A DNA stretch of 64,000 nucleotides, from the NCBI GenBank assembly GCA_008632985.1, contig QPGO01000052.1:186001-250000 (forward strand). The letters run 5' to 3'. A program made the translations under genes and the position numbers. Each line of letters opens with the position of its first letter. Within the stretch, counting starts at the first letter, position 1. Of this stretch, positions 1-45,460 are shown piece by piece. A model generated the notes under the pieces. That model searched no databases. It was not told the origin of the DNA and saw only the letters and a program-made list of their open reading frames with translations. Origin of the DNA: Psammoneis japonica (lineage: Eukaryota).

Positions 1-297
1 GCCAAGATTTCATGTTGTTTCAGACATGCTTCTCTTGTGACCAGCACTCTGTTTGCTCTGCTTGTTTTTTGAGCAAGAGGAAAGAGGAGTGCTGGCGGCA
101 CAGAGAAAGTCAGCCTTCAGAGCTGCCTGTTGCATGGAGAGAAAGAAAAAAAAGAGAAAAATTTGCTCTTTTGCTCTCTGCCCAGATGTCCCACCCAGGA
201 GAAGAGTTTGTCCTGCTCCTGAGACAAAAAAGCAACGGCAAATGCAGAGACAACCTCCTGCTGCAATTTTGCAAAGCCAGCTGAAGTTGTGATCTGT

Positions 298-318
298 CAC
301 ACACACACACACACACAC
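298..318. repeat. (CA)n microsatellite
   Basis: cacacacacacacacacacac read directly. Confidence 0.9.
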
Positions 319-743
319 TTTTGAAACAAATTGCTGTGTCAATTGTCATGGTTGCTTTGGCTGTTTTCTGATGACACATGGCTCATCCAAATTTCATTGT
401 GAGCTGGATCTGCCGGAGTCAAGTCATCATTGAATGACATCATCTGCACGTGATTGCTGTGCAAACATGAAAGCTCAAGCCCTTGTTGGCTCTTCTATGC
501 ACTTGATTGAGCACTTCTTTGGAAGTTGGTTTGAGGCAAAATGATGTGTTTGCCTGTGGAAGCAGTCATCTGATTTGCTGGCCACAATGGAGAAACACCA
601 TTTGATGACCAGCAAGCTTGCTTCTTGCGTGTGCGTCAATTGCATGCACAGGCCCAGTGCAGCAGTTGACATTTGTGCTCTTCTTTTTGATTGTTTGTGT
701 TGTTCAAGCAGGCGCCATGGGCAAGGGCAAGCCTCGGTGCACA

Positions 744-6135: not shown

Positions 6136-6654
6136 TTCTCAGGATCCCTGGAGAAGCAAGCCTCTAAAACAAATTATACTGGTAAGTTGTTTGGTGTTTA
6201 TTGATCGATGCAGCGTCCGCCGTTCCATGAAGCATCGCCGTCGGCCATTTGCGATTGGCGAACAAAAGTAGGGAAAGCAAGTACTTCTACATACTGTATG
6301 ATACGTAAGCAAGAGCCACGCAAAATACCGTTTACGCGACAGACATTTTACTTATGCCCATCACTTTGTATAGCGAAAAGTGAAAGAACTCGTGGTACTG
6401 TACACTGTAGCTTTCTACGTAGCCTAGTAAATTCAAGTGAAAGAAGTCGCCATGGCGGTGCACCGTAGGCACCGTAGTGTGGTTCGATTTTGACAACTTC
6501 GCTTGCTTTTTGCGACTGCAGAAGTGACACCAATCGACAACACGAAGCAGACATGACATGCGTGACGAAGCGAATGTTGATTTGTGGCGTGTTTCATGCT
6601 AGAAATGGACTTGTTGTTGCTTTCAAAGGATTGTGCAGACAGCTGCTTCTGGGC

Positions 6655-7000
6655 TTCAGCCACTTCAAAATCTTGACATCAAGAATTTCAACTGCTTCAA
6701 AATTTGATGTTGATTGCTTCAACCACTTCAAAATCTGGGCACAGAGGACTTCAAAATCTTGATGTTGAGCACTCTGGGTGCTTCAAAATCTGGGCATCAT
6801 AGATCTCAACCAAACAAAAATCTTGGCATGTGTCAGCGGCTTCTCTCAACCAACACTTCAAAATCCAGGCATCATGGATTGCAACTGCTTCAAAATCTTG
6901 ACACCAAGAATTTCAACCACTCCAAAGTTTTGATGTCAAGGATTTCAAACACTTCAAAATCTTGATCATGTCGAGGATTTTAAACACTTCCAAATCTCTC
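6655..7000. repeat. Degenerate tandem repeat with core (ac)ttcaaaatct(tg)
   Basis: The cttcaaaat core recurs near 6663, 6695, 6726, 6749, 6781, 6856, 6888 and 6952. Confidence 0.75.
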
Positions 7001-8943
7001 AGCATGTTGAGGCCACCCACTCTTCTTCCAGCGCATCTCATGTTGCGAGACCCAAAACAAACAGCAGCAGCAGCAACAACAACAGCATGAGCCAAAATGA
7101 CAACTGTGCTGACCTTTGTCTGGTGTTCACTTGCAGCAAGAGCATGGGCAGCTCTGGCTCCCATGCACTCCTTGCTGGTGACAACAACTCCCAGATGTGT
7201 CCGTTGCAGCACCCCCTTGTCTGACTGTGGGGAAGTCCTGCAAAAAATCTGGAGACCAACACCAGCTCTCCAGTGCCAGCCAGATGACCCTCTGCAAAAT
7301 GTTGATGGTGCATGTTTCATTCACAAAAAAATGTGGCAATGCTGTGTCTCTTCCATCCACACTGTGCCAACCCCACCATGCTGCAACACAAAGCAATCAT
7401 TTGGGGTCAAATGAGAGACAAAAAAAAGGTTGGCAAAAGTTCGCAATGTTGGGACAAAGAGCTGCTCATCTGACAAACAAAAAGCAGTTGCTGCCATGAC
7501 CAACAGAACACTGGGGGCATTTGCAGAGAGCAGCACCCACTGCCCAGTCCTTGACACACGGAGCTCCAGCCACATTGACATGCCAGAGAAAAGCCAACCT
7601 GCAGCTTGCAAGCAAGAACCATGCTGTGGGCCACAGGAGCCTGTCATTGTCATGCAAAAACACCTTAAAGTTTGGCTCTGCAACAGACAAATTTAGCCCA
7701 ATTGTGACCTGTGGGCAGTCACACTCCTTCTTGTGCCCAAACCCTGCCAAGAAAAAGCCACCAACGTTGAGACCTGTGTGTGGCAAATGCATGCATCATG
7801 CAAAAACTGAGCTTGGTCACATGACCTCACCTCTTCTTGGTTCCCAGCTGCTCTGATGCATGGAAGATTTCAGAGATTCTAAAGGACTGTCCATTTCATC
7901 ACAGCTCTAGACATTGGCAAAAGGCTTCCTCCACCAAATCCATGTGGCAGAATCCTCTCACAAGAAAAGCCACCTTTTGGGAGCCAGATGGACAAAAGTG
8001 TGCATGCCAAGTCCTTCCATTGGGCCATTGAATGGACCATCATTCTGCAGCACCATGACAGTGCATCTGTGAGACAAGTGGACCAACCTGGCAAAAGTCA
8101 AGCTCCCTCCTGCCAATGTTTTTAGAGCAAAGTCCTCCAATGATGTTGCCCTCCTTTGGAGCAAACAGCAAACAAGTCTTCTCATTTGTTTGGCTGCATC
8201 TGCAAAGCACTCATCAAGCACAGAGTTGGTTTCTGCCTTTGCAAATGTGAGCTCTTTTGCAGTCAAATTAAGTGGCTTTGTGTCAACACAGCCAGCCATG
8301 GAAACTTGCCCACTGGAGCATCTGAGCTCCCTCTTGTTTCAAATTGGCCAATCCCTGTGGACTGTGAGTGCCTCCACTTGTTTGTGGGGCTGTGGGGCTT
8401 CTGCTCCAAGTAGATTGACAATTGACTGGCACAAAATTGACATTGGATGACCACTCTGCAAATCCTTGAAACATGCAAGCACAAGCTCCTCTCCACAGAC
8501 TTTTTGGAGACAAAAATCAAGACCTCAAACAGTTGCTCAACTCAGCCAAAGAAAAAATCCTTGCTGGCCTTGCAAGATGTGACTGTCCAAACTGTTTCTC
8601 TTCAAAACTGACTGGTGCTAAATGGGCATGGGACACATCTTTCTGCAGCCAGAAGACACAAACAAAGCAAACAAGGTGCTCAATGCTTTGGATGATGGTG
8701 GAACATTCCACCAAAGTTGTCTGGTCCACACCTCTGACCTCTCAAGTGTGGCATCAGCCTCTGGCAGTCATTGCGCCATCAACAAGGATGAGGGTTTGAG
8801 ATTGTTTGACACTCCAGATTGTTGAATGACAAGAGATGCAGATGTGCCACCATCTCAACAGTGCACCCCCAGGCTTGCCAGTCAAAACTTGCCTTGACTG
8901 TGCTGCTGAGCACCTGCACTTCTGCTGAGCTCAACAACCTGGA

Positions 8944-8968
8944 TCTCTCTCTCTCTCTCTCTCTCTCT
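8944..8968. repeat. (TC)n microsatellite
   Basis: Run of tc repeats read directly. Confidence 0.9.
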
Positions 8969-11900
8969 TCAAGAGACCCAAAAAGACAAAGCAAAAGTGA
9001 GAACAAGCAATCAGGCTCTGCCAGAGAATGACAGCATTGGTTGCTGCTCCTGTCTGAGCTGGAGGGGTGATGTTTCAATGTCCTCTTTTGAGGCAATGTT
9101 CTTGGTGCTGTTCCAAGTCAGGGATCTCAACAATCTTGAAGAACTTTTCCAGGTTTGCTTGCACTGGGCATGCACATATGCTGGTGCATGGGGAACAAAA
9201 TTGGCTGCAATCTTGATCTGCATCATTTTCCATGTGGTGATGCAGTGAGGTGGGGTCAACAGCCACTTGGCACACACCTGAGAAGGGGGGCACATCTTGC
9301 TCCAGTTGTGCATTGAATGTGCAAAGGAGTTCTTGGTTGACTCAAATGGAATTCAATGTGGTGAATCAAGCTTGTGATTGGAGTTCCCGTTCCATGGTCT
9401 GTGATGCTGCTTTCCAGCTGTCAGCAGATGATGCTCTCAACAACAGTTTGTTGATTTCAAAGACTGGCACAACTCCCTGCAATGCACAATGTAGATTGTT
9501 GCAGCATTGTCAACAACATCAAGTGTCATTGAGAGAAGGACACTTGACAAAGGCCTGTGAAACTGAATTCACAGAATGCAGTGCTCGTTGCACCAAAGGA
9601 TGACAACAAATCCTTGCTCTGTCCATCCACTTGTCCAACAATTTTGATTTCACACTCGGACTCACAGGACCAACAAAATCTCACCCACACGCAGATGCCA
9701 CACGCGGGGAAATTCTTGAGCAATCATGTTGTTTGCCATCTGGCCAAGCTTGGCACAATGCAAGAGGTGGCTGACAGGTGTGACCCATTTTGTGGGAAAT
9801 GCCTGAATTGTTTTCACCATGTTGGGCAAGCTTGCACAGCACGCCAATGCTTCTGTTGCAGGGATGGACAGGGCAAACCACACCAATGGGCATGCCAACC
9901 TGCAATGGCTCCCTGCATTGCTTCACAAATCCAAAGAAGACAATCAAATTTCAGAAAGGCGGTGCATGATCAATGGCACCTGGGGCATTGAAGTCAGGAA
10001 AGAACTGGGTGCACAACAAAAAACTCAAACTTGAGGTCCTTCTCAAATTCTCATTGAGGCCTTGGCATTGACAAAGGGGAGAAACAGAGAGCTCCAAATG
10101 CTGCACAGGAGAGCTGATCTCCAGAAATCCAGCACAACTTCAGAGCTGCTGACGCTCCTTTTGATGACAACAGGAAGCTTCAAAAGGGCTTTGCAGACAG
10201 CACAAGAACAAGAAAGGTCAGTCATTGAGGGATTGACATCCATCATCTGTCTGCATCTCTGATCATTTGAGAATGAAATGTCAGCCAGAGATGGCTTGTT
10301 GTCCGGCCACCATTTGACAGAGCAGCCCACTGCACCAAATTGAGAAACCAGTCAATGCCTGCCAAACATGCAATGCAAAGGGATGGAGTTGCTTGGAAAT
10401 GAGAACATTGGAGGAAATTGCTGGTTGTGCCAGCTCCTGTTTCATTGACCAACTTAAATTCTGCTAAGTTCCGTGTGGGCTTGCCCACAAAACACAATGA
10501 CAGCAATGGCTGCAGTGGCTGCACATTAAAAACCAAAAGATGCATTTTTTGAGCCACCTGCCTCCAGTGCCTGAAATCTTTGCCCACTCAAGTGGTCTTT
10601 CATGTCAACAAAGCCTTTGTTGCCCCTGGTGGTGAACAATGTCAACCATGAAGGAAAGCCCACAGCAGGCACAGGAAGGGCACCCCCATTTGTTGCTCCT
10701 TTTTTTCTGCTCTGTCAGACAGTGCAGTGTGAAGCTAAACGAAAGCATTCTTGACTCCTGCTCACTCCCCATGGTCACCACATGGTGTGTGGCATGTGTT
10801 GGAATGGTTGAGTCAAACAGCAGTCAGCCTGAAACTCAAATCATGCCACTCTGTCTCATCTTTGCACATGCAGCTGCACATCTACACACCATGTTGGTGC
10901 ACCCACAGTTTTTTCAAAGCAGGTGTGACCATCTCATTTTGTTGGCAATTTGGTGCTGCTCACAGGAGCCTCTTGCACAAAAACCAAAACACACAAGAAA
11001 GACCACACATGAAGGCATCCCATGCAAAACAAGAAGCCCATGGAACAGAAGAGCAGCACAACAGACCCAGCCAGATGCTCCTCTGTCTACAAAAAACCGA
11101 TGACACTCAGATGTTTCAGTGCTGTTGCCAACTCAGCATTTTTCTGCATTCATTTCTGAAAGTGAAAAAAGCCAGAGAAAAGGAGTGCAAAGATTGCTGC
11201 CAACTCACAAAAGTGATGGCACATTTTTGCAATTCTGTGGTGGCACAAAAAGGGGCTGCAAAACATGACACCCCCACACTGGCTGCCCTTGTTGTTGCTT
11301 TGAACACAAAAGCTGCAAAGCTGAGCATCTTAAAAAGGTGGTGGTGTGTGCTTGCTTTTCTGTTGAAAAGGAGAAACGAGTTGTCTTGGGGCAAAGCAAA
11401 GCTGCAACAAGCCACCATGCAGGGGCATGTTCTGCAACAACATGCAAAAACTGACAGCTCTGCAAACCATCAAAAAGGAGTTTTTGCCACAAGAAAAGCA
11501 CTGTGCCATGCTGTGTGTTCCACTCAAGCAAGCAGCAATGTCTTGCCCACTGGGTTGAGGTGCAAGGCAATGTGGCATGGCAGTGCCACCATTTTGCTTG
11601 TTCACCTGCAGAGAGAGCAGCTAGAATGACTTCAAGTTTTTGCAGAGCTGGAAATGGGTTGATGCCAACTGCTTGCTTGCACATGCCTCCTGATGCTTGG
11701 ATGGAAGAGCAGTGCAGCAGCCCACCAACATGAGGAACAAAGGTGCACAAAAGCCCCCTGCACTCATCACAAGATGTCTTTGACATGAGTGAGCATTTGA
11801 AGTTCATGAGGCGCAGGCAATCCCATCTGGGTCACACCCCATTTGCAAAGATTCTTGTGCACTGGGAATGAGAGTTCATGAGTGCACTTTCTCACAGGCT

Positions 11901-12365
11901 CTAACCCCCCATGTTTTGTGCAGTCTTCAAGGTCTTGATGGGGGGATCTTCAGCAACTTGCTGCCATGATGTGGATGCTGGTGATTTCTTCCATTACAAA
12001 GAGCACTTGAAACAGTGGTTAAAGGTGGGTTCAGCTTAGACTTTGTAAATCCTTTCCAAGTTGCTCACAACATGTTTTGCATTTTTTGTGATGTCACTCC
12101 AGGCGTTCCCCGTTCGGTCTTTATTTCCTACAGCTGACAAGGTGGCGGTGTAAATTACGATATGATGCCTTGAGTTTTCATAGAAGCCGTTTCAACAAAC
12201 TGAAGCATGATTTGATTAGTCCTTCCCGTTCCATGCGGCACCTGTAGGACGGAACGCTTCGTGTGCATCTAGCTTTCTAAGAAAAAGTAGTATCTGACAA
12301 GTTAAATTCTCTAGAAATATTAGCGGTTAATCTCTAATCAAATGACCATGTAGTTCTCTTCATCG

Positions 12366-13301: not shown

Positions 13302-13608
13302 TGATGTTGTGTTCCCTCACACCGGTCCCCTCACACCTTGACGTTGAACGTGTGTTTTGGGAAGCGATGATTTTTTGCCGCCGTCCGCGCCAATGCGTGC
13401 GTCATTGCCAATCTCCGGGTGTCTTTTTCAAAAGATGGCGCCAAAAAATATCCAACGCGCACCCGACCGACGCGCGATCCGAGTGAGAGCAAGAAGATCT
13501 CGCGGCAACACGCAAATCCGTTCTGTTGATCATTGCTTAGCCAAGAGCCAAGCAGCAAGGACACAGCAAAGCCATACCGTAGGCCCTAGCTCAAGGATCA
13601 CTGATACC

Positions 13609-20836: not shown

Positions 20837-20929
20837 TGCATTGAATGCAAATAATTGAACTTTCTTCACTCGAACAGCATTTTGAAGTTGTCGATGATTG
20901 AAGATGGCAACATTCTGGTGCTGTACATG

Positions 20930-30201: not shown

Positions 30202-30267
30202 CTCCAAAGTTCTTTAGTCAATCCGAAGTCGAATCTGTTTCTGTGACTCCTCAAGCAAACTGGGGAG

Positions 30268-32932: not shown

Positions 32933-32982
32933 TACATCCGGGCGATTTTTGTGCAAATTTGCACAAAAATCACCCGGATATA
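32933..32982. repeat. 50 bp near-perfect spacerless palindrome
   Basis: tacatccgggcgatttttgtgcaaa|tttgcacaaaaatcacccggatata, two mismatches. Confidence 0.9.
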
Positions 32983-33132
32983 AAGTTACAACCGAAAATT
33001 CTGGATGGACGTACGGTACAGTAGTCTACGGTAGCTACGACGTGAGCAGGCTCGCTCATCATCGCCGCAACTTGCGATTACTTCCAACCAAGCTTCCAGC
33101 TTCCAGCACTACAATACTACCTTATTCTATCA

Positions 33133-33519
33133 ATGATGTCAGACAGTTCATACGCTGCCGCCACCCGACACCGTCGTCCATATTCTATTGCTGGACGTCC
33201 TCCTGTATTGGAAATCATCGATGATGCATGGACCGCAGATACTCTGACGGACGATGAGATTGACGCAGGACGTCACGAGGCTGTCATTGCTCCGCTGCTG
33301 GAGGAAGGGGAACTCGACGCTGATGCGGTAGTCATGACCACTGGAAACTCGGCGTCAGCGCACCTTACTGCAGAAAGGCGAAAGAAAGATGAGGGATGGA
33401 ATGATTTGGGTTTGGATCAATTTGACACTGTGCAAGGTTCAACCTGTGCAGTTGATGCCGGGCCTGCTGCTTCGAACAACAGCGGCCAACAGCGGGAGCA
33501 GCAGCAGCAGCAGCAATAG
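33133..33519 (+). CDS. APC13: Anaphase-promoting complex subunit 13 (Apc13/Swm1)
   Basis: 'VLEIIDDAWTADTLTDDEI' and 'KKDEGWNDLGLDQF' match the two conserved APC13 blocks (LDLIDDAW..D.L; E.KWTDLAL). Confidence 0.85.
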   Translation: MMSDSSYAAATRHRRPYSIAGRPPVLEIIDDAWTADTLTDDEIDAGRHEAVIAPLLEEGELDADAVVMTTGNSASAHLTAERRKKDEGWNDLGLDQFDTVQGSTCAVDAGPAASNNSGQQREQQQQQQ

Positions 33520-34344
33520 TGTGGTTTTCGATGTGGATTGTCAGCTGTCTGTTGGTGTCTTGAATTGGTCCGAGCTAGTTTACAGGTGCAATAACTACGC
33601 GGTGCGATCGCTTTCGATGAATGGCCGAGTCAGTGACAACTTGGAGCGTACTTTTGCATTCTCTGGGAACTTAGCAAAACGAGAATGGTCTCGCTGCGCT
33701 GGTTGCATCGTGTGTCTCCATCTATTTTCTCTATAGAGAAAGAGATAAAAAAGTGCAACAAGGTTTTTCAACATTTTCTACTCTTCTATTATAGATTACT
33801 TGTTCATGGCCCGTCCATACCGGAATCAATCGTGACATAATCACATGCTTGTAAAGGGGAAACTAGTACACCAAAGTTCTTACTCCTAATGTTTCTCCAC
33901 TATTGCCTCCAGAAACTTAAGCAGATCCAAAGATTCTGGGTCTTAATGGCTTTGCTGCTCACTCACAAAAGCTTAAACTAGTCCAGAGTGCTATCAGACT
34001 GCGATAATGAAGCAACGATAGAGCAGTCAAAGGCCTCTTAAGCTCATAAGAGCATTTACTGTACCTCTCAAAAGCTCGGGGTCGCACTCATGTTTCCAAT
34101 TGAATCCTCATTGACTCAAGAAGTGACCATGAGAAACGATTAACTATGCTACTTTTCTAATCCCATCGCAAGAGAAAAGTGCTTCTCTTTCTCGAACGAT
34201 CTCTCTGTCTCTCTCTCTAACGATTGATCGATCGATCGATAGAGTTTCTTCTCGGGTGGATGGATCTGTTTATGTCGCTTTTTCCGTTTTATTCTGGATC
34301 ACTACACTGACTGAAGGATCTAAGAGGGGCACCTGCGGTGAGCC

Positions 34345-34592
34345 TTACAGTGTACTCTCTGCTCTAGAGTGGAGTCTACGCTGTACTCTACTCTCTCTAG
34401 AGAGCTAGCCACTAGAGTCTACTCTAGCTTTTAGATAGAGACTTTACTACTCTACTTTAGAGTAGCTACTCTCCCTCTTACTCTCTACTCTAGGCCTCTA
34501 GAGAGTAGCTACCGGTACCGGGCGGTATGGCCCTCTACTCTAGGGCTAGCTACTGTATGTAGAGAGGTCTACTCTCATAGATACAGTAGAGA
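34345..34592. repeat. CTA/TAG/CTAG-rich low-complexity island
   Basis: ctctactctctctagagagctagccactagagtctactagc... and ctaccggtaccgg. Confidence 0.8.
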
Positions 34593-34849
34593 GGGGACGG
34601 ACGGACCACCAGAAGCAATGTGACGTCATCGACATAAAGAATTGCACTGATGATGATGTCACACAAAGCCACGTCAGCTATCCGTCAGCGCCTTCAAATT
34701 TTCGAAAAAATTGAAGGCGCTTCGTACAATCTCTGTAGAAACTGTACGAAGACATAATTTTGTCGGATGGAGAAACGGAAATCAAAGTCTGATCAAAGAC
34801 GACTCTCTAGTAGATATTTTTGTTCCTGATCTTGACGCTCTCTCTGACG

Positions 34850-35389
34850 ATGACGAAGGTAATTTCCGGCCTGATCTTCGTGACTTTTTGCGCATTCCAA
34901 GGCACAACAGCCTTCATCGTACGCACCTCGGATAAACGTTGCCACACGGTGCTTTCGGAAACAGCGTTTGAACCACGTGACAAAGTGATGCAACAGAGGT
35001 CGCAAGAATGGCAGGAAGAATGGCAGGAGCAAATCCCGTTCAACAGTACGTTCACATGACCCATATCGTTCAGATACATTTGATCAAAGTTCCTCTCTAA
35101 CAACAGGTCTTTTCTTCTGTGCATGACAGATATGCAATATCCTGCTTACTACACCCCATCTGACCGTCGCGCTGTATCAGACCAAGAGCGGATCTGGAGT
35201 CGGGATCGTGAATACAACTGGTACGACAGCCATCGCAGCTCTTTCGAAGAGGAGCGCCAGAGCCGATTCGCACCTTATTCCACTCGCTCTAACTATTATT
35301 CAGGCGTTTACGAAGAGAAAAGGTCAGGTTCCAAGTGGGGCAACCGAATGCGCCGGGCAGCGTTTTGGCTGAAGACGCGATGCTCGTAG
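34850..35389 (+). CDS. Small hypothetical protein with signal peptide, possibly plastid-targeted (exons 34850-35045, 35130-35389)
   Basis: Hydrophobic leader ending 'TTA-F'. A GTACGT...CAG intron joins two ORFs in frame. Confidence 0.6.
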
Positions 35390-35760
35390 TTAGAGTTGAA
35401 ACGTTTGCGGGACAGTCGATACCGCTGTGTTTGATACAATGCACAATCGAAGGAATGCGAAGGAAAGAGCTAGGCGTGAGAATCCTTCATTCTTTCAGTT
35501 CGATATTCGTCCGTAGATTATTGATGCGCTCCGTTCTGCTGTCAAAAGTGGATCTCGTCGAAACGTTTGGTGTCAGAATAAGAACGAAAACGATACTCGT
35601 AACATACATAAATCTAATGCGTATTTTTTATCTCAGTTTCTATTACCATTTCGACAAACATCGCAGACTCTCCGTTTCACTCTCTGTTTCACAAAGTAAG
35701 AGGTATCATTGGTGACAACTCCAGCTCTCCAATCCGAGCATTGCAGTGAAAACAATTGAA

Positions 35761-37196
35761 ATGTGGGGTAATTTACGAATCAATTGGCGATTGTTTTCCT
35801 CATTGCTGCAAATACTTGGTCGTCCAGAAAGAGACTATAAGAGATGCAACCTCCTCGTCAGACGAATAAGCTGCATGCGGCCGATGACTGCGGTTCCATC
35901 GTTTGCTGGTTGGTCGAGTGAGTCGTCGTCTACTCCCAACGACGCCGCGACCGGCGGCAATCACCGCTACCGTATGTGCACAATGTCATTTTCTCGCCCG
36001 TCGCTGCAGCACCTGTTTCGAGTATGTCTTCGCCCATTGGAGTAGGGTTCGGGACAGCCGCCTTGGGAGATTCTTGTTACGATGCTGTTACCATGGCTCT
36101 CGACGCTGGCTTTCGAAAGTTTGATACCGCCGAAGCGGATTGGTGGTACGATCAGAAGGCTGTTGGATCTGCGTTGGAGTCTTTCTTCTTGGAGCAATTT
36201 AACGATGAGGAATGCAATGGCGGCGAGCACGAGTACTGTTCGCGGACATGCCATTCAGAAGATTTGTTGATATCCACAAAGATACCGCCTTGGTCACTTA
36301 CGTCTGAGTCGGACATTCGCGCTAATGTAAGTAACGATTTTGGGTTCTGTCTCCTTTTTTCATAGTCTTTTTTTAAATTATTATTGAAGCTTACTCTCTG
36401 CCGGATCAATGCCAATACCGTATGTCCAATAGGCTCGAAGGAGTCGCAAAGAGCTGCTTGGTTTTTGTGACCCGCTTACAATCAAGGAGGATCCCGACGG
36501 AAACGTTGTCGAGACTGAATATCCTCTGGATGTCTACTATATTCATGGTAGGTTGGCGTGTTTCCTTCTCGCTGCCACTCGAATGTCGACTCTGTTTTTC
36601 TAACCAGTCGGCTTTCTGCTCCTGTCCAAGCTCCAAAGTGTTGGCCTGGATGGCACCACCGCTGTGACAACGTGGGTGAAACACTTTCCTTGAGAGACGC
36701 GTGGGTGGCAATGGAGGCTGTCGTCGGGTTAGACAACTCGGCGAGACGCATTGGCTTGTCAAATGTGCATCCGCCCGAGCTTCTAGACATAATCAATTTT
36801 GTTCAAGAACGAGAGGCGCGGGGAGACACGAATCCACCACCTCGAATGCCTGATGTTCTTCAAGCCTTTGCCGATCCTCTTTCACCAGCGGCAGAGTTGC
36901 GAAAAATCTGTAAAGAGCATGGCATTGAGTTTGTCAGCTATTCTACGTTGGGTACGCAGCATCATAATCAACCTCGAAACCCGGTTTTAACCAGTGCGCA
37001 AGTACGGGAAACTGCAGCCAAGCATGGGCGCTCAACAGCTGAAGTAGTCCTTAGTTGGGCTCTCCAACGAGGCATGAGCGTCATCCCCCGGTCGAACAAG
37101 GAGCATCATATTCGTGAATTGGCGAACATGCTCACCATGCCACCATTTCTTAGCGAGGAGGATCTAGCCGTCATCGACTCTCTTGAACTTAATTGA
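35761..37196 (+). CDS. Aldo-keto reductase family protein (introns approx. 35918-36009, 36327-36432, 36548-36630; start uncertain)
   Basis: Motifs GFGTA, 'ALDAGFRKFDTA', ISTKIP, 'LDVYYIHAP', IGLSN, SYSTLG and 'VLSWALQRGMSVIPRS'. Confidence 0.9.
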
Positions 37197-37345
37197 ACGA
37201 AAAAGGAATCTTATTGGTTTTGGACGTGCTATCCTACCGTACATTTGTTTTTAAAAAATAAGATTTGTAGATGTAGTGCACACTGTGAGGGACTTTTGTC
37301 GCAACACTGCTGTGACTCCTGCGTCCCATTTCTTCTTTGTTGTGC

Positions 37346-38638
37346 CTACCATACATCGCCTCCATCAGTGTCAAGATCTCCGTCGTCGTAATCAAAGCCA
37401 CCATCATCAAAATCATCTTCGCCGTCAAGAGAATCAGTGTCGTCGTCCAAGTCGTCAAGAGGCACCATTTGAACTCCCCCGTCGTCAATTATTGCATCCT
37501 CCGCGTCGTCCAAGTCCAGCTCTTCTTCGTCCGCCTCGACCGTCGTTGCCGCAGGAGCAACAGAGTCATCGCCATCGTCATCCAGGAACCCGAGGTCAAG
37601 ATCCAGGTCAATGTCAACATCTTCATCGGAAGATTCATCATCAATGTCATCGCCAGCGTTCTGAATTGCCTCGAGTAACCCCTGAGCAGCGGATGCTTGA
37701 TTCGACGCAGTGGGTGTCGATTCCTCCTCATCGTCGTCAGCCATGTCAAGACCAAGATCCAACAAAAAGTCATCAAAACTGTCATCCTCTTCGTCTTCTT
37801 CTTCATCATCATCCTTGGCTGCCGGCGTTACTGATGATTCAGCCGTATCAGGTCCATCATCAACAATCGCATCGTCGGCAGAAGGCGGTTTGACTGCTTC
37901 TGCAGTGACAGCGTCTTCTGCTACCGAGCCAAGCGTACCGTAGACACCATCTCCCAACTCTACCGGCACATCCATGACACTGGCTTCATCATCATCATCG
38001 TCATCCACAATAAGAGTTGACTTCTTTTCCGATTCGGCGGCTTCACGTCTTTCTTTGACACCTCTCCGTGCCCCGGCTCGCATCGCTGCTTCCATCTCTG
38101 GTGTCGCCCAGCGACCCTGCTGTTCGATAAAGTCTTCGATGGGAATTGGATGTGGATGAGGTGGCTCCCATTTGTGATGCCATTCAATTTGCTGAAAGTG
38201 CGGCCACGGTATCGGTTCTGGGTCGTCGTCGCCAATCGGTAAATCGTGAAACGGCATGTTTTCTGGTGTCTTGCCTGGACGCATCGTCCCTGGATACTCC
38301 ATCATGGGCTCATACGAGTCCGGCAGTTCCGACTCTTCGTCGTCAATTGACATATAGCCAGAACCGGGAGGGGCATATATATACAGAGCGGAAGCGGGGT
38401 CTTTCACCGTACTTTCAAAGATTCTTCGACGTTGGCTGTTCTGGCTACGACCTGACCATCGCTCAATCGTTGGAAGCATAGTAAACGCATTGCAGAATTC
38501 ACACAAGGCGTATCCAATGAAAAGTAATACGACGGTTGAAGAAGACATTGTAGCCACCAGCGAAGTGCTTGCGGGATGGTGGTGGCGGCGCGGCCGTCGG
38601 ATTCCCATCGTCGTGATGTTGTGTGAGCGAGCCATCAT
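37346..38638 (-). CDS. Hypothetical protein with hydrophobic leader, Pro/Trp/His-rich core and long acidic tail
   Basis: Open frame of about 430 aa with normal codon usage. 'CNA-F' cleavage-like site. Core 'YPGTMRPG...PWPHFQQIEWHHKW'. Confidence 0.75.
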   Translation of the reverse strand: MMARSHNITTMGIRRPRRHHHPASTSLVATMSSSTVVLLFIGYALCEFCNAFTMLPTIERWSGRSQNSQRRRIFESTVKDPASALYIYAPPGSGYMSIDDEESELPDSYEPMMEYPGTMRPGKTPENMPFHDLPIGDDDPEPIPWPHFQQIEWHHKWEPPHPHPIPIEDFIEQQGRWATPEMEAAMRAGARRGVKERREAAESEKKSTLIVDDDDDDEASVMDVPVELGDGVYGTLGSVAEDAVTAEAVKPPSADDAIVDDGPDTAESSVTPAAKDDDEEEDEEDDSFDDFLLDLGLDMADDDEEESTPTASNQASAAQGLLEAIQNAGDDIDDESSDEDVDIDLDLDLGFLDDDGDDSVAPAATTVEADEEELDLDDAEDAIIDDGGVQMVPLDDLDDDTDSLDGEDDFDDGGFDYDDGDLDTDGGDVW

Positions 38639-38749
38639 CACTCAGCACTCAGCACCCATCAATCAAAACAGACGGATGACGTACGTACGAGGGCACTTGT
38701 CATCACCCCATAAGCACGTAGATTTCTACTTTGATGAGTCATCAGGCTC

Positions 38750-41700
38750 AGAACCCAGCAGACACGGTGCCCCGGAAGTGTGCACATTTTGTCTTCGACC
38801 GTTCTGTCATCCTTTTGCACGCCTTGTGCGACAGCTGTTTGCATCACATCTTTCGTGGCACGCCCCCCCCCCCATTGATGCACCCAGCAGCAGAGTTGTC
38901 GGAGAATCTTGGCCATGCACACAGCAGCCTGAGTGCTGGTGCGCCAACCCACGCAGCCCTGGTGTGTGTCTGCAGCAGAGCCAGCATGTGGTGCTCTTGC
39001 CACCGCTCGTGTCTGCAAGGTGCGCTCTGTCTTTTGCAAATCTGAAAAATGGAAGGTGCGATTTGCTCTTGTTGAGAGTTGAAATTTGCTTGACAACAAA
39101 AAGCTGCATGTTCTTGTCAAGGAGTGCTCCTTCATTGCCTCTGCAAATGGGTGGATTTTCACAGTTGACCCAAATTGGCAAAGCGGCCAGGAAACCAGAC
39201 TCAAGGAAATTTGGTCTCACAACATGTTGCGAGCTCTTCACAAGATCACTTTCCCATGTGTTCACAGTGCCATTGTTGTGAATTCATTGTGTGTGTCCAC
39301 AGCCAAGTTGGCAAAGCAAGACACAACAGACAGCAGGCGAAACATGCATGGCTCATTTCTGTGCACACGCACACCCAAGTCAATCTTGCTGATGGTGGCT
39401 GTCATTGTTTTTTGGCTGGAGCATGTCATGCCAACAATTTGATTTGTTCATTTTCTTTGTTGTTTGTTGTGTGTTGCACTGGTCACAACTTCTGGTTGTG
39501 CATTTTTGGAACAAGGCAGCAATGCCGCTGCACGAGAGCCACAAGCAAGTCCAACATTCGACATCAAGTTGCCAGGATGTGGAAGTCCAAGCTGCCCAAA
39601 GTCACCAAGACATCTGGGTTCTTAATTTGCCAAAATCTGGTGATTTTGCTGGCTCTGGCCAGACAATCACCATGGGCACAGCTCTCTCCTCTCTTTCCTC
39701 TGGCTGGCTGGCCGCTCTGCCACTCGTCTCTGCTGCTGCCAGCAGAGCCACTGGCTGGCTGTGCCCCCCCTGCTTGCATTTGCACCAGTGCACCCAGCTG
39801 TGGTGCTGGCAGTGCTCCTCCACTGATGGGGTGGATGGGCAACACTGGGGCTTGAAGCAGTGCTTGCTGCTGGGAAGCAGAGCTGGCATGCCACTCCTTG
39901 ATTGTTGTTCACATTGAAAACATCCCTCACTCCTGTGAGCTCAATGCAGAGAGGTGGAAGACATGACATGCCTCTTTGTGACAGCAATTGAAGCTGTTCA
40001 CTTGGCTTGCCACTGAGCTCTTTGGAAAAATGAGCAAAACAGAGGCCACCAAGAAAGCACGCTTGTTGTTGTGGTCAAAGGATGTGCATCATTGCAACTC
40101 ATCTTCAGCTTTTGTGGTTGTCATCTCCCTTTTGTGTTGGTTGCTTGCCCACTTTGTGCGAGTGTGTTGTGGAGCTCAAAATTTCGTTCTCGCCACATCA
40201 AATGAGGGCCACAAGATAAAAACACATTGTGGCAGCCAGCAGAACAGGCAAGGAAGGGCACATTTTTTGTGACTCTGGGGAATCCTTCAACAAGGCAAGG
40301 GGAAGCCAAACCAAAAACCAAAGAGACTCAACTTGGGAGCACTGATCACCTCTTGTCTGAAGCAAAAATGGGCCAAAGCAAAGGAGTGCATTCAAGTGCA
40401 CCCCCCACAAGCAACACATGAGATCACATTGTTGTTTGTTGCTTGTTGGCAAATCTGTTCTTCACTGGGTCTGTTGAGATGAGTGTGTTGGTCAATTGAA
40501 ACAAGATGATTTCTCTGATTGAGAAACAGATGAAATGGAAGATGGGTTTGAGGTTTCCCATCAAATGTGCGACTTTGTGCAGTCAACATTTGTTCTTGAT
40601 GTGGCTTTCAGCAGAGATGGTTTGGGTTCATCTGAGAAATGGGCACTCATGCAAATGTCACCGTTGTTCTGCCATGACAGAATTGGAAACACACCACTGC
40701 TCTTCCATGTTGGCCACAACTGGCACACAGCCAGCCCAATGCTCACAAATGTGTTTTTCTGGATTTGGCTCAACAGATCTGCACAAATGCATTGTCATTG
40801 TGCATCCAAAAGTGTGTGTGTTGGGGGGGGAGGGGGCACACCAGATTTCAGAGCTTTTGGTGGCTCATTGCAGTGGCACTCCTTCAGAGGATCCCACTTC
40901 AGTTGACCCCAGATGAAGACAGTGACCCACTCCAAACTGAACAAGTTTTTCTGCTCTGTTTCCAAGGCATCGGAAGCTGCTGTGTCAGAACATGGTGCTG
41001 GAGGACTTGAGCACCAAGACATGACAAAGTTTCATTTCCAATTGATGCAATGTTTTTGGAGGCTGTTGATTTGGAGACACCTCACAAGTCTGACTTTCAA
41101 ATTGTTGATCTCATGTCACCTTGGAGGACTCAAAGCAGCATCAGAAGACTGGCTCCATTTCATGCTCTGGCATGGGCACCCTTTTGTCATCTGCACATGT
41201 CAAAGATTCTCCTTGAAATGTCCGACCACTGTCAAGGCATGTTGCCACTTTGCACAGCAGGAGCACAGCCTCTGCTGCCAGATTTGCTGCTGCTGTTGCT
41301 GAGGCAGAGCCAACCAAACTCCACTGACATCAAAGGAATTGAGTGTCCTGCAGAACCAGTGGGTCCAAACAGCACTTGGACAGCTTGGGTTTTGCTTGTG
41401 CAAGGCAATGTGGTTGTTGACTGGCATGGAAATGCTGACAGATGGCAAAAACTTCATGATTCTTTCATTGCTGAGTGCTTGTCCTCAGGCTGCAGCTCAC
41501 CCAACAACAACTGGTGCTTGGCTGGGGCACTTCACTGTGCCATCAAATGAGGTTGTGTGTGGAGGCAGCAAGACAGTTGTGGAAGGCAGTTCCAGATTCA
41601 GCAACTGCTTTTGATCCAAAGACAAGATTGTCTCCATTCTGGCTGGCTGCATCAGCTCCTGAAAAACCTCCCTCAGGCTTCAAAAGATGCCTGACAATGG

Positions 41701-44700
41701 GCTGGATGCAACACTTGAGTTGGCCCACATTCATCTGGGAGCTGCTTCAGTCAGGAACACCCAAGCATTTTTCTCTTCAAGCCAGTGCCAGTGCAGCAAC
41801 TGAAAAGGCTGTGGGTGCTTGTCATGCATGCACAAGGAAACACGGGAACCACAAAATGTGTTGCATGCAACACAGAGAGGTTGCAACAAGCAAATTTCCA
41901 ACACAGAGATCAGTGCAGCAGAGCCAGCCAGCAGCTTCTCTTGTTGCAGATCACAACATGCATTGCAGCTCTGATGCCAGCATCACAGAAATGAAAGAGG
42001 CTCACTCTGACCCTGAAGACAAGCTTTGGAGGAAGGCTCACAGACTGGCTCTCTTGCCAGATGCTCCTCATCAGCATGATTTGGGTGGAAAGCTTTCAGC
42101 AGATCCCACGTTGACTTGCCAGTGCTTTGAAGCCTTTCACAGAAAGCTGTCATCCAACAAATGCCCAGTCATTTGTTTGTGGCTCTGCCAATGATGCAAG
42201 AGAGCACTTGAAACAAGCCAGTGAATGCCTCCAGGAGCACAAATCTGGACTCAGCATTTGAGAAAGCAGTGCTGTCCTGGCCCTTGGCAACAAGCAAAAA
42301 GTTTTGAGGAGCCAAAAACAGTGCAAAAGCCTTGCCCCAGCTGCACCAATGGTGACAACAGAGATTGCAAGTTGCAAATCATATGCATGATGCAGAAACA
42401 GACCCAATGATGGAGATGGTGCACAGAATGCACTGGATTTGCTGCTTTTGGGGTTGCCCACATCTGCCGTGCAGAAGCCTCTCATCACATCTGACTGAGG
42501 AGATCATGCTGTTGACAATGGGCTCAACTTGACATTGTGGCAGGCAAGTGACTTGTGAGCTCTCATTTTGTTTGGCAGCGCTGGGTGCTGAACATTGTTT
42601 CAATCAGATGCAGTGCATCTGTTTTCAAAGAAGATTGATGTCTCACTTTTTGTGATCTCAGCTGGCTCTTGTCCAGAGCAACATTTTCACATTGGTGGTG
42701 CTGGCTCACACAGCTTGTTTCTTTGTTTGTGTCTGTGAGGGTGCTGTTGCATCTAATCTTTGCAGCCAATTCTCACATGCACAACAACCTTTTTGTTGCT
42801 GTTGCACTCTTGTCATGGTGGTTGAAGCTTGCAGGCAGGAGGTCAGAGGTCATGGAGTTGGTCACACAGGCAGTCACAGACTGGGGGCTGGTCAAGCAAG
42901 AGGTCAACTGGGTCAACTTGGTCTTGGTGCTGAACATGCAAATGCAAAGAGCAGATGTCCTCCTCCCTGACAATTGGTTGCCTGTGCCAATGTGGTTGTG
43001 CTCTGGCCTCATGTTGCCTTGTCCCACAGGTTGGTGACGGCTTGAGAGCTTCCCAACTTTAGAGCAAGCTGCAAGCATGATGTCCAACAACCTCCAAGCA
43101 GTGGCAGGATGAGGGGGCACTGGTGGTCTCTGGGAGATCCCAGGTGACACTTTGACAACTGCAGTTGAGCATTGAGCAGTGCAAGGCACCAGTGTTGTGC
43201 AGCTGTGGCATCCTGTCCCATCCTCCATCAGCCAGAAGCACACGTCTTCTTCAAACTCTGACTCCAGAATGAAAGGACCACATGATGGTGCCAACCAACA
43301 TGACAACAGCAAGCTGAGGGCATTGATGGTCTCTGGTGGATCCACATGACACTGCAACACCACGGCTGAGCAGAACAAGGCCTGTCTTGTGTGGTTGTGG
43401 CCCCACATCATCTTGTTCTGACAGGAGGAGCAGACTTGAAAACTTCCCAACTCCACAGTGAAAGGGCCGCACACGCCAGCCAACCCAGTGGCAGCAAGCT
43501 GAGGACGCTGACGGTATCTGATGGGTGCCTGGCAACACTTCAAGAACTGCAACTGGTCATTGCAAGGTTGGCCTTATGGTGTTGTGGCCTGCTGATGTCA
43601 CCTTGTCTCCAACAGCAGCAGATTTGAATTTCCAAACTCCAGAGCAAAAGGCCCCTGTGGTGGCACCAACCAACCTGACAACTGCAAGCTGCTGAGGGCA
43701 CTGGCAGTGTCTGGTGGACCCCAGGCAAGACTTTCAGAAGTGTGCTTGAGTGTTGCAAGGTTGATCTTGTGGTTGTGGCTCCATGTCACCTTGTCCCCAA
43801 TGGCAGCACATGTGAGTTTCCAAACTCCTCCAGAGTGCAAGGAAACCACAATGGTGCCAACCAACCTGAGGCAACAGCAAGCTGAGGGCATTTGCAGTCT
43901 CTGCTGGACCCCAGGTGTTGGCAGCCTTGCCACATGATGGACAAAACAAGAAGACAACACAGAGTCAGATGTCCTGGCACTTTCACAGAATTGGGCTGGA
44001 AGCTTCGCCCTCCACCAGAGCTCCACAGGTGGATTGCTTTTTGACATTTGAAACAGAGAAGCTTTTTGTCAAACTCCTCCTCCAAAGTGGGCACCTCAAA
44101 TGAAAATGTCCAAAGCCACATGAAACACCAGCTGTCCATGCAAAACAGAGGGACCAAGAAAGATGTGATTTTGCCAAGAAATGTCCCACAAAGCACAGAA
44201 TTTTGCATCACCTGGAGCTGGAGCAGGCCTTGAGGCCAGGCAGATCTCTGCTGACATGTTTGATGTTTGGTGCCACTCTTTGATGCCAAGCCCTGTTGTG
44301 CCACCACAAGCACATGTCTCTCAGACAGGCCAGAGGATGATTCCTGCTGCAGTCCATGGACCCTGCAAGACTGCCTGTCTCATGCCACATGTTTGTCATC
44401 TCTGAGTTGTCATTTTCTTGCACCTCCTGTCTCAAAAATCTGAGATTGCACATGTTGCAATGGATGGAGCATTGGAGCAGCCAGGTTTTGGCTCTGAACT
44501 CTGCCGCCATTGGCTTTGGATGTGCGGTGCTGCCATTTTCTGTCAGCTTGAACAAGACCAGCAGAAATGGAGCACATGAAAGTTCCTCTCCAGCAGTGCC
44601 AAGACTGCCACATCAAATTATTCCACAACCTTCCCAGCGTGTCTGCTCTTGCCAACAATGGCCCCTCATTTCCCAGCCATGGAGAGCACAATGTGTGGCA

Positions 44701-45460
44701 CAGAGAAAGCAAGCAGGCTCCATGAGTTTGTGCTGGAAAATGTGAAAATGTGCTTTGACATGACCGCTGATTGCTGCAAATTGAAGCACACTTTCTTTTT
44801 CTGACACCAAGCTCCAAGAGTAAAGAGAGCACCCCAACAAAACGCAGCTTTGAACAACAAAAGTTTCCACGTCCTTTTGACCAACTCTCTGTTGTAAACA
44901 CAGGTCTTTGGCGGCAACAGGAGGATCCTGTCACTTGGCACACTCCTCTCATCACTGCAACACTTCCTGCAGCCACTGCAAGAAGTCTGCTCTGCACTCC
45001 ACAGAAACAAGCCAAGACACCCAATGGATGAAGATGTCAAGCATTGAGCCCTCCACATTGGGAGTCCTGTGGCAAGTCACTGACACCCTGCTCGACATGT
45101 TGACATGACTGTTCTTCCTTGCCATTGTTTTGTGTAAAAAAATGCCCTCTGCCTGGTTTGATCCTGACTTTTGAAATGAACACAAGTGCCAGGTGGTCTT
45201 TGTTTGAATTTAAAGCGACAGATGGCTGTCACCCCATGACTTGTGCTCCTCTCTGGGACAATGTGCACCAGGCATGACTGGGATTTCCATGGCTCTGTTG
45301 TGTCGGCTCCAATTTTGTTGCATTGAACCCAACAATGCTTTGAACATTTGTGGAGAAAGAAGAATGGAATCAAGGTGGAACAAGTGCAAGCAGGATGCCA
45401 CAATGCAAATGGTGTGCTTTGAGGGACACAACAAAGGACGGCTGTTCCTCAGAGCTTAAA
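38750..45460. other. TpA/CpG-depleted degenerate block 4
   Basis: TA is extremely rare over ~6.7 kb. No intact gene. Confidence 0.85.
43050..43930. repeat. Degenerate tandem array, ~190 bp period, about 5 copies
   Basis: Anchors 'ttcc(c/a)aact...ccaacc...gcaagctgaggg...tctctggtgga' recur near 43050, 43250, 43444, 43630 and 43818. Confidence 0.7.

Follow-up and report, generated by a model that had tools for sequence, protein, structure and literature searches.

The window analysed here, a stretch of 64,000 nt of diatom DNA taken at its full length, consists of gene islands separated by gene-free blocks with a peculiar dinucleotide composition. The depleted blocks were delimited across the window by a two-state HMM on TA and CG. 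The features are as follows, with observed/expected ratios (o/e) in brackets after the counts.

1-1871, unstranded: depleted block 1, truncated where the window begins; TA 3 (o/e 0.02), CG 23 (0.23)
6601-12103, unstranded: depleted block 2; TA 25 (o/e 0.07), CG 24 (0.08)
12104-23735, unstranded: unaffected control island; TA o/e 0.64, CG 1.03; holds Mre11 at about 13.3-16.3 kb
23736-32256, unstranded: depleted block 3, whole, split by a younger element
23736-26704, unstranded: left part of block 3; over 23736-26731, TA 6 (0.03), CG 18 (0.11)
26705-30544, plus strand: nested younger LTR-bounded element, non-autonomous, with LTRs, TG..CA ends and a target-site duplication
28751-29608, plus strand: 42-bp tandem array inside the element; period 42, 19.4 copies (about 19-20 units)
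30545-32256, unstranded: right part of block 3; over 30487-32256, TA 0, CG 26 (o/e 0.25)
32066-32765, unstranded: fringe, TpA-depleted with CpG kept; the TA-HMM runs to 32765, the CG-HMM ends at 32065
32766-38727, unstranded: unaffected control island; aldo/keto reductase; spliced contigs in sequencing run X2
38862-45438, unstranded: depleted block 4, the largest complete one; TA 12 (0.03), CG 46 (0.11)

A preliminary description had drawn four gene-free blocks in this region, nearly free of TA, saturated with TG/CA and sharply bordered by islands with normal TA. Its coordinates agree with the HMM blocks within about 100-500 bp, and the composition that it described is borne out by the counts below.

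Composition and borders of the depleted blocks

The blocks were pooled with the nested element left out (18,632 bases) and compared with the gene islands of the window (41,528 bases). The pooled blocks contain 46 TpA, while about 742 would be expected at the gene-island frequency (o/e 0.04, Poisson P about 2e-248), so that the loss is even stronger than had been claimed. TG and CA are raised to 2102 (o/e 1.84) and 2126 (o/e 1.80), and the excess is seen in single blocks (TG and CA o/e 1.71 and 1.85 in block 1, 1.93 and 1.71 in block 2, 1.86 and 1.83 in block 4). The islands have 1652 TA (o/e 0.61), with o/e 1.10 for TG and 1.14 for CA. An equal-sized loss of CpG, absent from the earlier account, is also found in the blocks, with 137 seen against about 1131 expected and o/e of 0.13 against 1.02 in islands. 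Is the gain of TpG and CpA comparable to these losses? From islands to blocks TA+CG falls by 0.091 and TG+CA rises by 0.087 per base, and YR steps per base are 0.2367 in blocks and 0.2407 in islands. The gain of TpG and CpA thus matches the loss of TpA and CpG, and the pyrimidine-purine total is unchanged. The block sequence is complex with no low-complexity character, and its GC content is 0.46-0.49, about 0.48 overall.

When separate TA-only and CG-only HMMs were used, the block borders were at most 150 bp wide. Block 1 was placed at 1-1900 by TA and 1-1847 by CG, and block 2 at 6476-11994 and 6589-12103, respectively; the two losses have common domains and borders. The fringe at 32066-32765 has 3 TA against about 30 CG. 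The borders lie within a few hundred bases of the closest transcript-like contigs. Within the islands the composition is normal also outside coding sequence. The island at 12104-23735, which carries an Mre11_DNA_bind domain at 14702-15688, has TA o/e of 0.9-1.2 in its non-coding stretches. By the Mre11 encoded here, the organism is placed among the diatoms. In the island at 32766-38727, X2 contigs cover 33093-38607 with intron-like skips, the first of which has GT..AG ends, and the skipped stretches have TA o/e of 0.55-0.77 and CG o/e of 0.62-1.01. For the introns, intron-like stretches and spacers of the islands overall, the ranges are 0.55-1.24 for TA and 0.62-1.13 for CG. The process spares the introns and spacers of gene islands.

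What DNA are the blocks made of? They carry no genes and are probably diatom chromosome domains made up of silenced junk or repeats. The term repeat DNA, used in the preliminary description, finds no backing in the protein content of the old blocks, where none of the 119 ORFs of at least 90 aa reached a Pfam cut-off and no transposon or viral protein was found. Terminal repeats were looked for in the old blocks and none were found. Degenerate internal repeats lie in block 4 at 43.25-43.9 kb. The read data of a sequencing run, X1, were assembled into contigs from 31-mers (word depth about 37-60, contigs up to 315 kb long). The summed word depth of the old blocks in this run is 75-1720 against about 60, which no more than hints at relatives. 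For the fringe it is 418-638, and hence the fringe has relatives elsewhere in run X1.

Direction, strand and rate of the changes

The changes are unpolarised, and their direction is taken from composition and from sites with three states. For the former, TA and CG were converted in silico in the gene-island DNA of the window, and 3- to 5-mer spectra were compared. The collapse of both steps matches the k-mer spectrum of the blocks (r 0.96-0.93 vs 0.65-0.55). A single collapse fits worse, with r 0.79-0.75 for TA alone and 0.87-0.83 for CG alone. The GC content predicted by the collapse is 0.468, and 0.480 is observed in the blocks. In the old internal repeats, 11 CA-vs-TG doubles occur in 129 aligned YR columns, about 5 times our estimate of about 2 for independent single changes.

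The nested element gives a second line of evidence. It is bounded by two LTRs of 277 bp (26705-26981 and 30268-30544), 96.4% identical, and by a target-site duplication of 5 bp (GCAGC; 26700-26704 and 30544-30548); the left part of block 3 is old, saturated DNA that received the insertion. The summed word depth on the LTRs is about 117,000-132,000, versus about 60 on the single-contig flanks; this is not a copy number, but it indicates that the LTR family is abundant in run X1. No Pfam domain was found in the element. Its TA is already low (o/e 0.19) while its CG is largely retained (o/e 0.68). Block 3, drawn as one block in the preliminary description, is not uniform, as it encloses this element. 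Of the 277 LTR positions ten are unlike in the two copies, and all ten differences are transitions. Nine of the ten lie in YpR steps (P 0.015, in a sample of 10 differences only); by type there are 3 of TA vs TG/CA, 2 of CG vs TG/CA and 2 TG-vs-CA doubles. Since the two LTRs belong to a single insertion, these changes arose after integration. The interior of the element is poorer in TA than the 3.6% LTR divergence predicts, so part of the depletion may be inherited within the family.

The tandem array inside the element registers the course of mutation from within. One site is TG in 8 units, TA in 6 and CA in 5, and never CG; a second is CG in 10, TG in 6 and CA in 3, and never TA; a third is CA in 9, TG in 6, CG in 1 and other in 3. 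The units do not count as independent events and show 21 non-YR transitions as well. The old blocks can also be compared with further sequences from run X1. Among the matches listed (40 of 834), 13 of the 23 differences are YR transitions, and in 10 of these 13, again among the matches listed, TA or CG in the other sequence stands opposite TG or CA in the window. The change came about by mutation, in DNA that was already integrated.

Does the process prefer one strand? The TG fraction is 0.497, its dispersion does not exceed that of normal DNA, and runs tests give z from -1.3 to 2.0. The conversion is strand-symmetric and unclustered by strand. The transitions from TA to TG/CA on both strands, as had been proposed, are thus seen in the YR total, the collapse model, the LTR pair, the array and the equality of TG and CA. 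As for the rate, the loss per lineage computed from the LTR counts is about 0.21-0.39 for TA and 0.05-0.13 for CG, and the LTR divergence at TA is about 30-70 fold that at non-YR positions. For blocks at equilibrium, the dinucleotide frequencies put the forward rate above the reverse rate by a factor of at least 45 (TA) or 15 (CG). TpA is removed faster than CpG, as is also seen from the young element and the fringe, both of which are TA-poor while CpG is kept.

Proposed mechanism and alternative explanations

We think it likely that these gene-free, probably silenced blocks have gone almost to the end of two transition processes, each with its own sequence context. One would be TpA>TpG/CpA, by A>G on either strand where the A follows a T; the other would be CpG>TpG/CpA, by ordinary decay of methylated CpG. 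The TpA arm may be enzymatic and directed to chromatin that also carries CpG methylation. Its most likely agent would be a DNA adenine deaminase of ADAT2/TadA type with a strict requirement for 5'-T; the natural tRNA substrate of ADAT2/TadA is U33-A34. In diatoms, DNMT5a is needed for the CpG methylation of TEs (PMC9998398). No deaminase candidate for the TpA arm was found among the 90 island ORFs of the 64-kb window, in line with the earlier remark that the enzyme is not evidently encoded there. The effect would be that mobile or foreign DNA is irreversibly inactivated, a RIP-like outcome by the opposite chemistry. In the boldest form of this view, a tentative one, a single chromatin-guided deaminase with dual activity on A and C would erase both of the self-complementary YR steps, TpA and CpG; such dual activity is cited for ADAT2 of amphioxus and trypanosomes in the accessible part of a recent preprint (bioRxiv 10.64898/2026.01.13.699255).

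Could the same composition have another origin? One explanation is that the T of TpA, rather than the A, is the target. A TET/JBP-type dioxygenase might mark this T in silenced repeats (as 5hmU or further oxidised), and the marked T would mispair with G, giving TpA>CpA, and TpG on the opposite strand. Both arms would then be pyrimidine modifications of one heterochromatin state, alongside 5mC. Oxidised thymines mispair with G. To our knowledge neither 5hmU nor TET/JBP is known in diatoms. The common domains and borders of the two losses would suit such a mark, strand symmetry makes an A-origin and a T-origin indistinguishable, and dinoflagellate 5hmU, in the text available, favours the T of TA and TC, overlaps 5mC on repeats and silences TEs (PMC11572971). 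However, 5hmU pairs normally with A, one-step deamination is a simpler route to A>G, and TC shows no depletion in the blocks (o/e 0.95), though it is down from 1.18 in the islands. We regard this explanation as unlikely.

It is very unlikely that the elements lacked TA and CG from the start, or are held in that state, by an intrinsic or selected composition that would, for instance, evade a nuclease or sensor reading TA and CG. The young element, with an interior too TA-poor for its LTR divergence, leaves room for a family bias. But the two LTRs diverged once inserted, and at YpR steps, the same array site is TA, TG or CA in different units, and the YR total is conserved with a simple collapse model fitting the spectrum. 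CA-vs-TG doubles are in excess, other X1 sequences retain TA or CG at the TG/CA of the window among the matches listed, and the blocks are non-coding and heterogeneous, with no evident object for selection.

A sequencing or assembly artefact, in which miscalling of modified bases in silenced DNA turns CG and TA into TG/CA, is most improbable. Some long-read base-callers are biased by modified bases, and the platform of both the window assembly and run X1 is off record; run X1 is possibly the window's own assembly sample, and it makes a good check for artefact that is not independent. Its contigs, at a depth of about 37-60, agree with the blocks except for 0-5 letters per 0.7-2.1 kb: 3 on 26001-26688 (left part of block 3), 5 on 30551-31547 (right part) and 0 on 39663-41772 (block 4), where the fraction of sampled 31-mers present in the run is 0.82. 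The contigs also depart from the window outside the blocks. Reads that assemble into such contigs are presumably accurate, and errors would give neither a clean single state of TG or CA at almost all sites nor identical states in both data sets.

Might there be no targeting at all, with neutral loss of TA and CG throughout the genome and selection keeping both in genes only? Apart from the blocks the window has no long non-genic stretch, as such a scenario would have it. It is nevertheless highly improbable, given the TA and CG of intron-like stretches and spacers in the islands and the narrow borders reported above. A variant has WA>WG errors made by repair of Pol-eta type where replication is late. 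Pol-eta-type WA>WG repair, also named as an alternative in the preliminary description, fits poorly: AA should fall too, yet the AA/TT o/e is 1.26 in the blocks vs 1.11 in the islands.

Finally, ADAR-like A>I hyper-editing of retroelement transcripts, fixed through reverse transcription, is hardly credible even though ADARs prefer 5' U in the preprint text available (bioRxiv 10.64898/2026.01.13.699255) and an LTR element is among the affected units, for it predicts A>G on one strand while the changes here are balanced and unclustered, the LTRs of one insertion differ by changes that post-date integration, the old blocks have no retroelement features, and the mutated DNA runs beyond the element to sharp domain borders.

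Relation to known systems

The decay of methylated CpG, known from vertebrates and plants, resembles the present case in the low CpG (o/e 0.13) and the gain of TpG and CpA limited to non-genic DNA. It cannot remove TpA, whose loss here is faster and goes further than that of CpG. RIP of ascomycete fungi shares irreversible domain-wide transitions in a dinucleotide context, non-genic repeats as targets, and a strong dinucleotide skew with sharp borders. It turns CpA into TpA and leaves AT- and TA-rich DNA, whereas here TA is destroyed and GC stays at about 0.48. Fungal RIP was rejected on this opposite direction (TpA o/e 0.04, CpA 1.80, GC 0.46-0.49). DNMT4, which is related to RID, occurs in many diatoms (PMC9998398). 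If true, our reading describes a RIP-like system with reversed chemistry, and since it leaves the GC content untouched it would be invisible to scans by GC or RIP index. APOBEC3 and ADAR of animals likewise make deaminase-type, context-specific transitions against mobile or viral nucleic acid. They act on single-stranded cDNA or double-stranded RNA in strand-biased clusters, while the changes here show strand symmetry and no clustering and came after integration; that either edited a retroelement intermediate was rejected on the TG fraction of 0.497, the non-significant runs tests and the differing LTRs. The 5hmU of dinoflagellates, also a SAR lineage, is a TpA-directed modification accompanying cytosine methylation on TEs; in the text available it is an epigenetic mark with no reported mutational footprint (PMC11572971).

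There are several practical consequences. The altered repeats have lost all TAA and TAG stops and therefore carry long spurious ORFs (119 of at least 90 aa here). Their GC content is normal and they are missed by homology-based TE annotation. Dating of insertions by LTR divergence will give wrong results in such genomes, and transgenes in such domains may suffer mutation. A natural TpA-specific adenine mutator acting on double strands would be of enzymological interest.

The closest relative is the TpA-specific A:T>G:C hypermutation of the chlorarachniophyte Bigelowiella natans, shown by mutation accumulation (Mettrop et al., bioRxiv 10.64898/2026.01.13.699255), so that the system can no longer be called undescribed as in the preliminary description. 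In the accessible text of that preprint, A>G and T>C make up 230 of the 231 single-nucleotide mutations of two viral inserts and are all stated to fall on TpA, 124 clusters are poor in TpA and rich in CpA+TpG, and the de novo rate in the domain is raised about 1000-fold with variation from line to line; an ADAT2-like candidate agent is a hypothesis there too (bioRxiv 10.64898/2026.01.13.699255). We found no diatom report of TpA>TpG/CpA hypermutation in a literature search. By the cluster rule given in that text (at least 3 consecutive 1-kb windows with Rho TpA at most 0.43 together with Rho CpA+TpG at least 1.52), 19 of the 64 1-kb windows here pass the thresholds, and four clusters qualify (7001-12000, 24001-27000, 30001-33000 and 39001-45000), in addition to two windows at the cut start.

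As far as the preprint text goes, the two cases share the TpA target with TpG and CpA as products by strand, here at the level of an unpolarised signature, as well as sharply delimited non-genic domains, here possibly of foreign or mobile character, and a proposed adenine deamination of ADAT2/TadA type. They differ in host, a rhizarian there and a diatom, that is a stramenopile, here. The targets there are foreign or mobile DNA (virus, virophage, TE); the only identifiable target here is an LTR element plus anonymous low-copy DNA, and no viral gene was found. TpA o/e is 0.04 here, which is saturated, against 0.45 given for the NCLDV insert of B. natans, and CpG is lost in the same domains here while the term CpG has no occurrence in the preprint text available. 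It is possible, if at present a tentative view, that TpA hypermutation is an old defence of the SAR supergroup, which in diatoms would act in domains of CpG methylation and faster than methylated-CpG decay. If true, a TpA-erasing process exists in a second, distant lineage that is ecologically dominant and genetically tractable, and a single-species curiosity becomes a candidate general defence of marine protists. To the B. natans case would be added a saturated end-state, a coupling with CpG loss that points to heterochromatin targeting, and an abundant LTR family caught in mid-process as a source for a polarised trinucleotide spectrum and rate. The finding is thus a diatom case of a very recently described process, here saturated and coupled to CpG decay.

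TpA and CpG loss in four gene-free blocks

From a 500-bp profile and a two-state hidden Markov model (HMM) on TA+CG, the following blocks were called:

1-1871, depleted block 1
6601-12103, depleted block 2
23736-32256, depleted block 3, which encloses a younger element
38862-45438, depleted block 4

With the nested younger element left out, the blocks contain 46 TpA in 18,632 bases, an observed/expected ratio (o/e) of 0.04, while the gene islands between them contain 1652 in 41,528 bases (o/e 0.61). At the island frequency 742 would be expected in the blocks (P about 2e-248). The o/e of TpG and CpA there is 1.84 and 1.80. A preliminary description had claimed TA loss with TG/CA gain in these gene-free blocks, and this part stands, as does its exact count of three TA in the first 1.9 kb. 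But it left unmentioned that CpG is likewise missing from the same blocks (137 against about 1131 expected; o/e 0.13 versus 1.02). The GC content of the blocks is nearly unshifted at 0.46-0.49, because the loss of TA pushes it up while the loss of CG pushes it down. The block DNA is complex, and a simple repeat is ruled out. Short microsatellites (CA)n and (TC)n lie within the blocks at 299-318 and 8944-8968.

The borders are as sharp as had been described, at most 150 bp wide. In the only island covered by spliced contigs of sequencing run X2, no border is more than a few hundred bases away from the ends of those contigs. When the HMM uses TA only, the block is continuous over 23716-32765 and spans both the young element and a 700-bp fringe of normal CpG (32066-32765). 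TpA loss thus extends beyond CpG loss, which indicates that the two arms of the process are separable and that the TpA arm is faster. A near-perfect 50-bp palindrome (32933-32982, 92% self-complementary) is found at the edge of the fringe.

Could the depletion be a base-calling artefact, as the preliminary description proposed to check? Of the 31-mers sampled from block 4, a fraction of 0.82 is present in sequencing run X1. Contigs of this run reproduce the blocks at a word depth of 37-60, each piece having 0-5 other letters, and depart from the window at scattered genic sites too. Contigs of up to 315 kb built from 31-mers would imply accurate reads. Note that run X1, of unrecorded platform, is possibly the same sample as the window, so the agreement is a check of assembly against reads and not an independent replicate.

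What kind of DNA are these blocks? None of their 119 open reading frames (ORFs) of at least 90 aa has a Pfam domain at the cut-off (E up to 0.1), and the translations, rich in C, H, Q and W, look non-coding. Such frames, which reach 296 aa in the old blocks, are long because both strands lack TAA and TAG, and they are a trap for gene predictors. Self-BLAST (E 1e-5) found no terminal repeats of the old blocks. Summed word depth, which hints at relatives and does not give copy numbers, is 75-1720 in the old blocks against about 60, so parts of them have relatives elsewhere in run X1. The highest value of any old block belongs to a stretch with many back-and-forth joints in that run:

43250-43920, degenerate tandem or rearranged repeat with a period of about 185-190 bp and 69-81% identity

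The blocks are best described as old, degenerate repeat or junk DNA, of which some may not be repeat DNA.

The gene islands encode Mre11, an aldo/keto reductase, cytochrome b561, an HMGL-like enzyme, exosome CSL4 and a SNF2-related protein. No deaminase, DNA methyltransferase, TET/JBP or Y-family polymerase is encoded in the islands of the 64-kb window, which agrees with the earlier remark that the enzyme is not evident there. One normal island contains a 924-codon open frame (57346-60120, minus strand) without a Pfam domain. Comparison at E 1e-5 with the 8000 candidates that share most words with it, out of a collection of 5.8 billion proteins, gave no homologue; it is an orphan or lineage-specific gene.

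Conversion within pyrimidine-purine steps

Four results point to conversion of TA and CG as the origin of the block composition. First, pyrimidine-purine (YpR) steps, that is TA, CG, TG or CA, amount to 0.2367 per base in blocks and 0.2407 in islands. Relative to islands, TA+CG is lower by 0.091 per base and TG+CA is higher by 0.087. Transitions confined to YpR steps would leave such a total unchanged. Second, each TA and CG of the window's own gene-island DNA was randomly collapsed to TG or CA. The 3-, 4- and 5-mer spectra of the collapsed DNA correlate with those of the blocks at r 0.96, 0.94 and 0.93, compared with 0.65, 0.60 and 0.55 for uncollapsed DNA, and collapse of TA alone or CG alone gives a poorer fit. 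Third, when degenerate internal repeats of the old blocks are aligned, 129 YpR columns include 11 CA-versus-TG double differences, about five times the estimate of about 2 for independent single changes, the repeat pairs being partly overlapping. As supportive evidence, such doubles fit a site that was once TA or CG and changed separately in the different copies. Fourth, among the 40 differences listed of 834 between the window and the read-derived contigs, 23 lie in old blocks and 13 of these are YpR transitions. In 10 of the 13 the window's TG or CA faces TA (4) or CG (6) in the other sequence. In core gene islands only 2 of 8 differences in the same list are YpR transitions, and 5 are transversions.

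A younger LTR element inside block 3

Block 3 encloses two further features, one within the other:

26705-30544, nested LTR-type unit of 3.84 kb with 277-bp direct terminal repeats and TG..CA ends
28751-29608, 42-bp tandem array within the nested LTR element

The terminal repeats (LTRs) are 96.4% identical, and a 5-bp duplication, GCAGC, flanks the unit on both sides. Together these indicate an LTR-type insertion into DNA which had been depleted beforehand. A Pfam search of its ORFs found no recognisable pol or gag, so the element is non-autonomous. Its CpG is largely kept (o/e 0.68) while its TpA is already low (0.19). The LTR itself is CpG-rich, with 21 CG in 277 bp. For X1 contigs at least 80% alike, summed word depth is about 117,000-132,000 on the LTRs, 6,700-12,000 inside, while single-contig flanks have about 60. 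These depths make the family a very abundant one in run X1, and the LTRs, at about 10-20 times the depth of the interior, suggest many solo LTRs. A metagenome scan with the unchanged 21-nt stretch at the LTR start gave two hits (L001 and L002), which match over 21-26 nt only, have ordinary TA and CG, and were rejected as chance hits.

The two LTRs of a retroelement are identical at integration. The present pair differs at 10 positions, all of them transitions and nine in YpR steps (P 0.015), including three TA versus TG/CA, two CG versus TG/CA and two TG-versus-CA doubles; only 1 of 133 non-YpR positions differs. The copies of the 42-bp array behave in a similar way. One site has TG in 8, TA in 6 and CA in 5 copies and CG never, and another has CG in 10, TG in 6 and CA in 3 and TA never. 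Taken together, the LTR differences and the array sites indicate a process that works on DNA after integration, with both strand products arising from one ancestral dinucleotide. By arithmetic from the LTR counts, the probability of loss per lineage is about 0.21-0.39 for TpA and about 0.05-0.13 for CpG. From the frequencies, and assuming that the old blocks are at equilibrium, the forward rate exceeds the reverse one at least 45-fold at TpA and at least 15-fold at CpG. The array also has a 126-bp higher-order periodicity (its best self-matches are at offset 126), and it sits within an open frame of 789 codons, which is unlikely to be a real gene.

Chemistry, targeting and known systems

In the blocks TG makes up 0.497 of TG+CA. 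The local dispersion of TG and CA does not exceed that of ordinary DNA, and runs tests gave no significant result. There is neither strand bias nor strand-coordinated clustering, which makes it less likely that an RNA or single-stranded intermediate was edited. A thymine modification of the 5-hydroxymethyluracil (5hmU) type may be a rival chemistry for the TpA arm. It is compatible with the symmetric signature, and in dinoflagellates 5hmU is reported to replace T preferentially in TA and TC, to overlap 5mC on repeats and to silence transposable elements (PMC11572971). The preliminary description had also offered Pol-eta-type WA->WG mutation, and this is spoken against by AA/TT, which are undepleted (o/e 1.26 in blocks versus 1.11 in islands). 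Surviving block TpAs have T at -1/-2 in 48%/57% of cases versus 20%/26% in islands (46 and 41 sites; with the starting composition uncertain, nothing is built on this). TTTA/TAAA contexts are enriched among them, while ATA/TAT are most depleted, the numbers being small.

Run X2, though labelled 'DNA?', is transcriptome-like, with contigs on 33093-38607 that skip two intron-like stretches:

35046-35129, intron-like skip 1, 84 bp, GT..AG ends, absent from X2 contigs
36327-36629, intron-like skip 2, 303 bp, GT start, absent from X2 contigs

These stretches and the spacers inside islands have TA o/e of 0.55-1.24 and CG o/e of 0.62-1.13, which contradicts a genome-wide neutral bias and indicates that the process is aimed at domains. 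On the blocks X2 gives diverged pieces only and no near-exact contig, which was not taken as a sign of silence. Two island spacers, 16400-17100 and 21000-21500, stand out by a high TA content (o/e 1.22 and 1.24), at the other end of the scale from the blocks, and are probably promoter regions.

Is there any known system of this kind? For the CpG arm, diatoms methylate CpG of transposable elements via DNMT5a (PMC9998398), which would account for this arm; many diatoms also have DNMT4, which is related to RID, the enzyme of RIP (PMC9998398). For the TpA arm, our literature search turned up no account of TpA being lost or hypermutated in diatoms. The preliminary description was right about the kind of system but called it undescribed, while one is described for Bigelowiella natans (bioRxiv 10.64898/2026.01.13.699255). 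In mutation-accumulation lines of that organism, 231 of 302 nuclear single-nucleotide mutations fell in two integrated viral regions, where the mutation rate was about 1000-fold above that elsewhere. All but one of the 231 were A>G or T>C, all of these on TpA. The genome has 124 clusters of 1-kb windows poor in TpA and rich in CpA+TpG, and an ADAT2-like deaminase is the proposed agent. The text of the preprint contains no occurrence of CpG, diatoms or stramenopiles; its Tables S2-S12, outside this count, may give CpG values. By its thresholds, 19 of the 64 1-kb windows here qualify and form four clusters of at least three. For the Mre11 ORF, identity is 44-59% to named diatoms, 42% to brown algae and 39-43% to oomycetes; one dinoflagellate-labelled record (52%) is the sole further named taxon among the matches. 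This bears out the diatom origin first assigned, so the window is diatom and not Bigelowiella.

Thus the TpA depletion is real and striking, and it is of the same kind as the Bigelowiella hypermutation, here in a new lineage. What we infer beyond that is an enzyme, a targeting signal and a function in defence. Unlike in B. natans, the diatom blocks are saturated, their TpA loss goes together with CpG decay in the same domains, and the process acts on an LTR retroelement after its integration.
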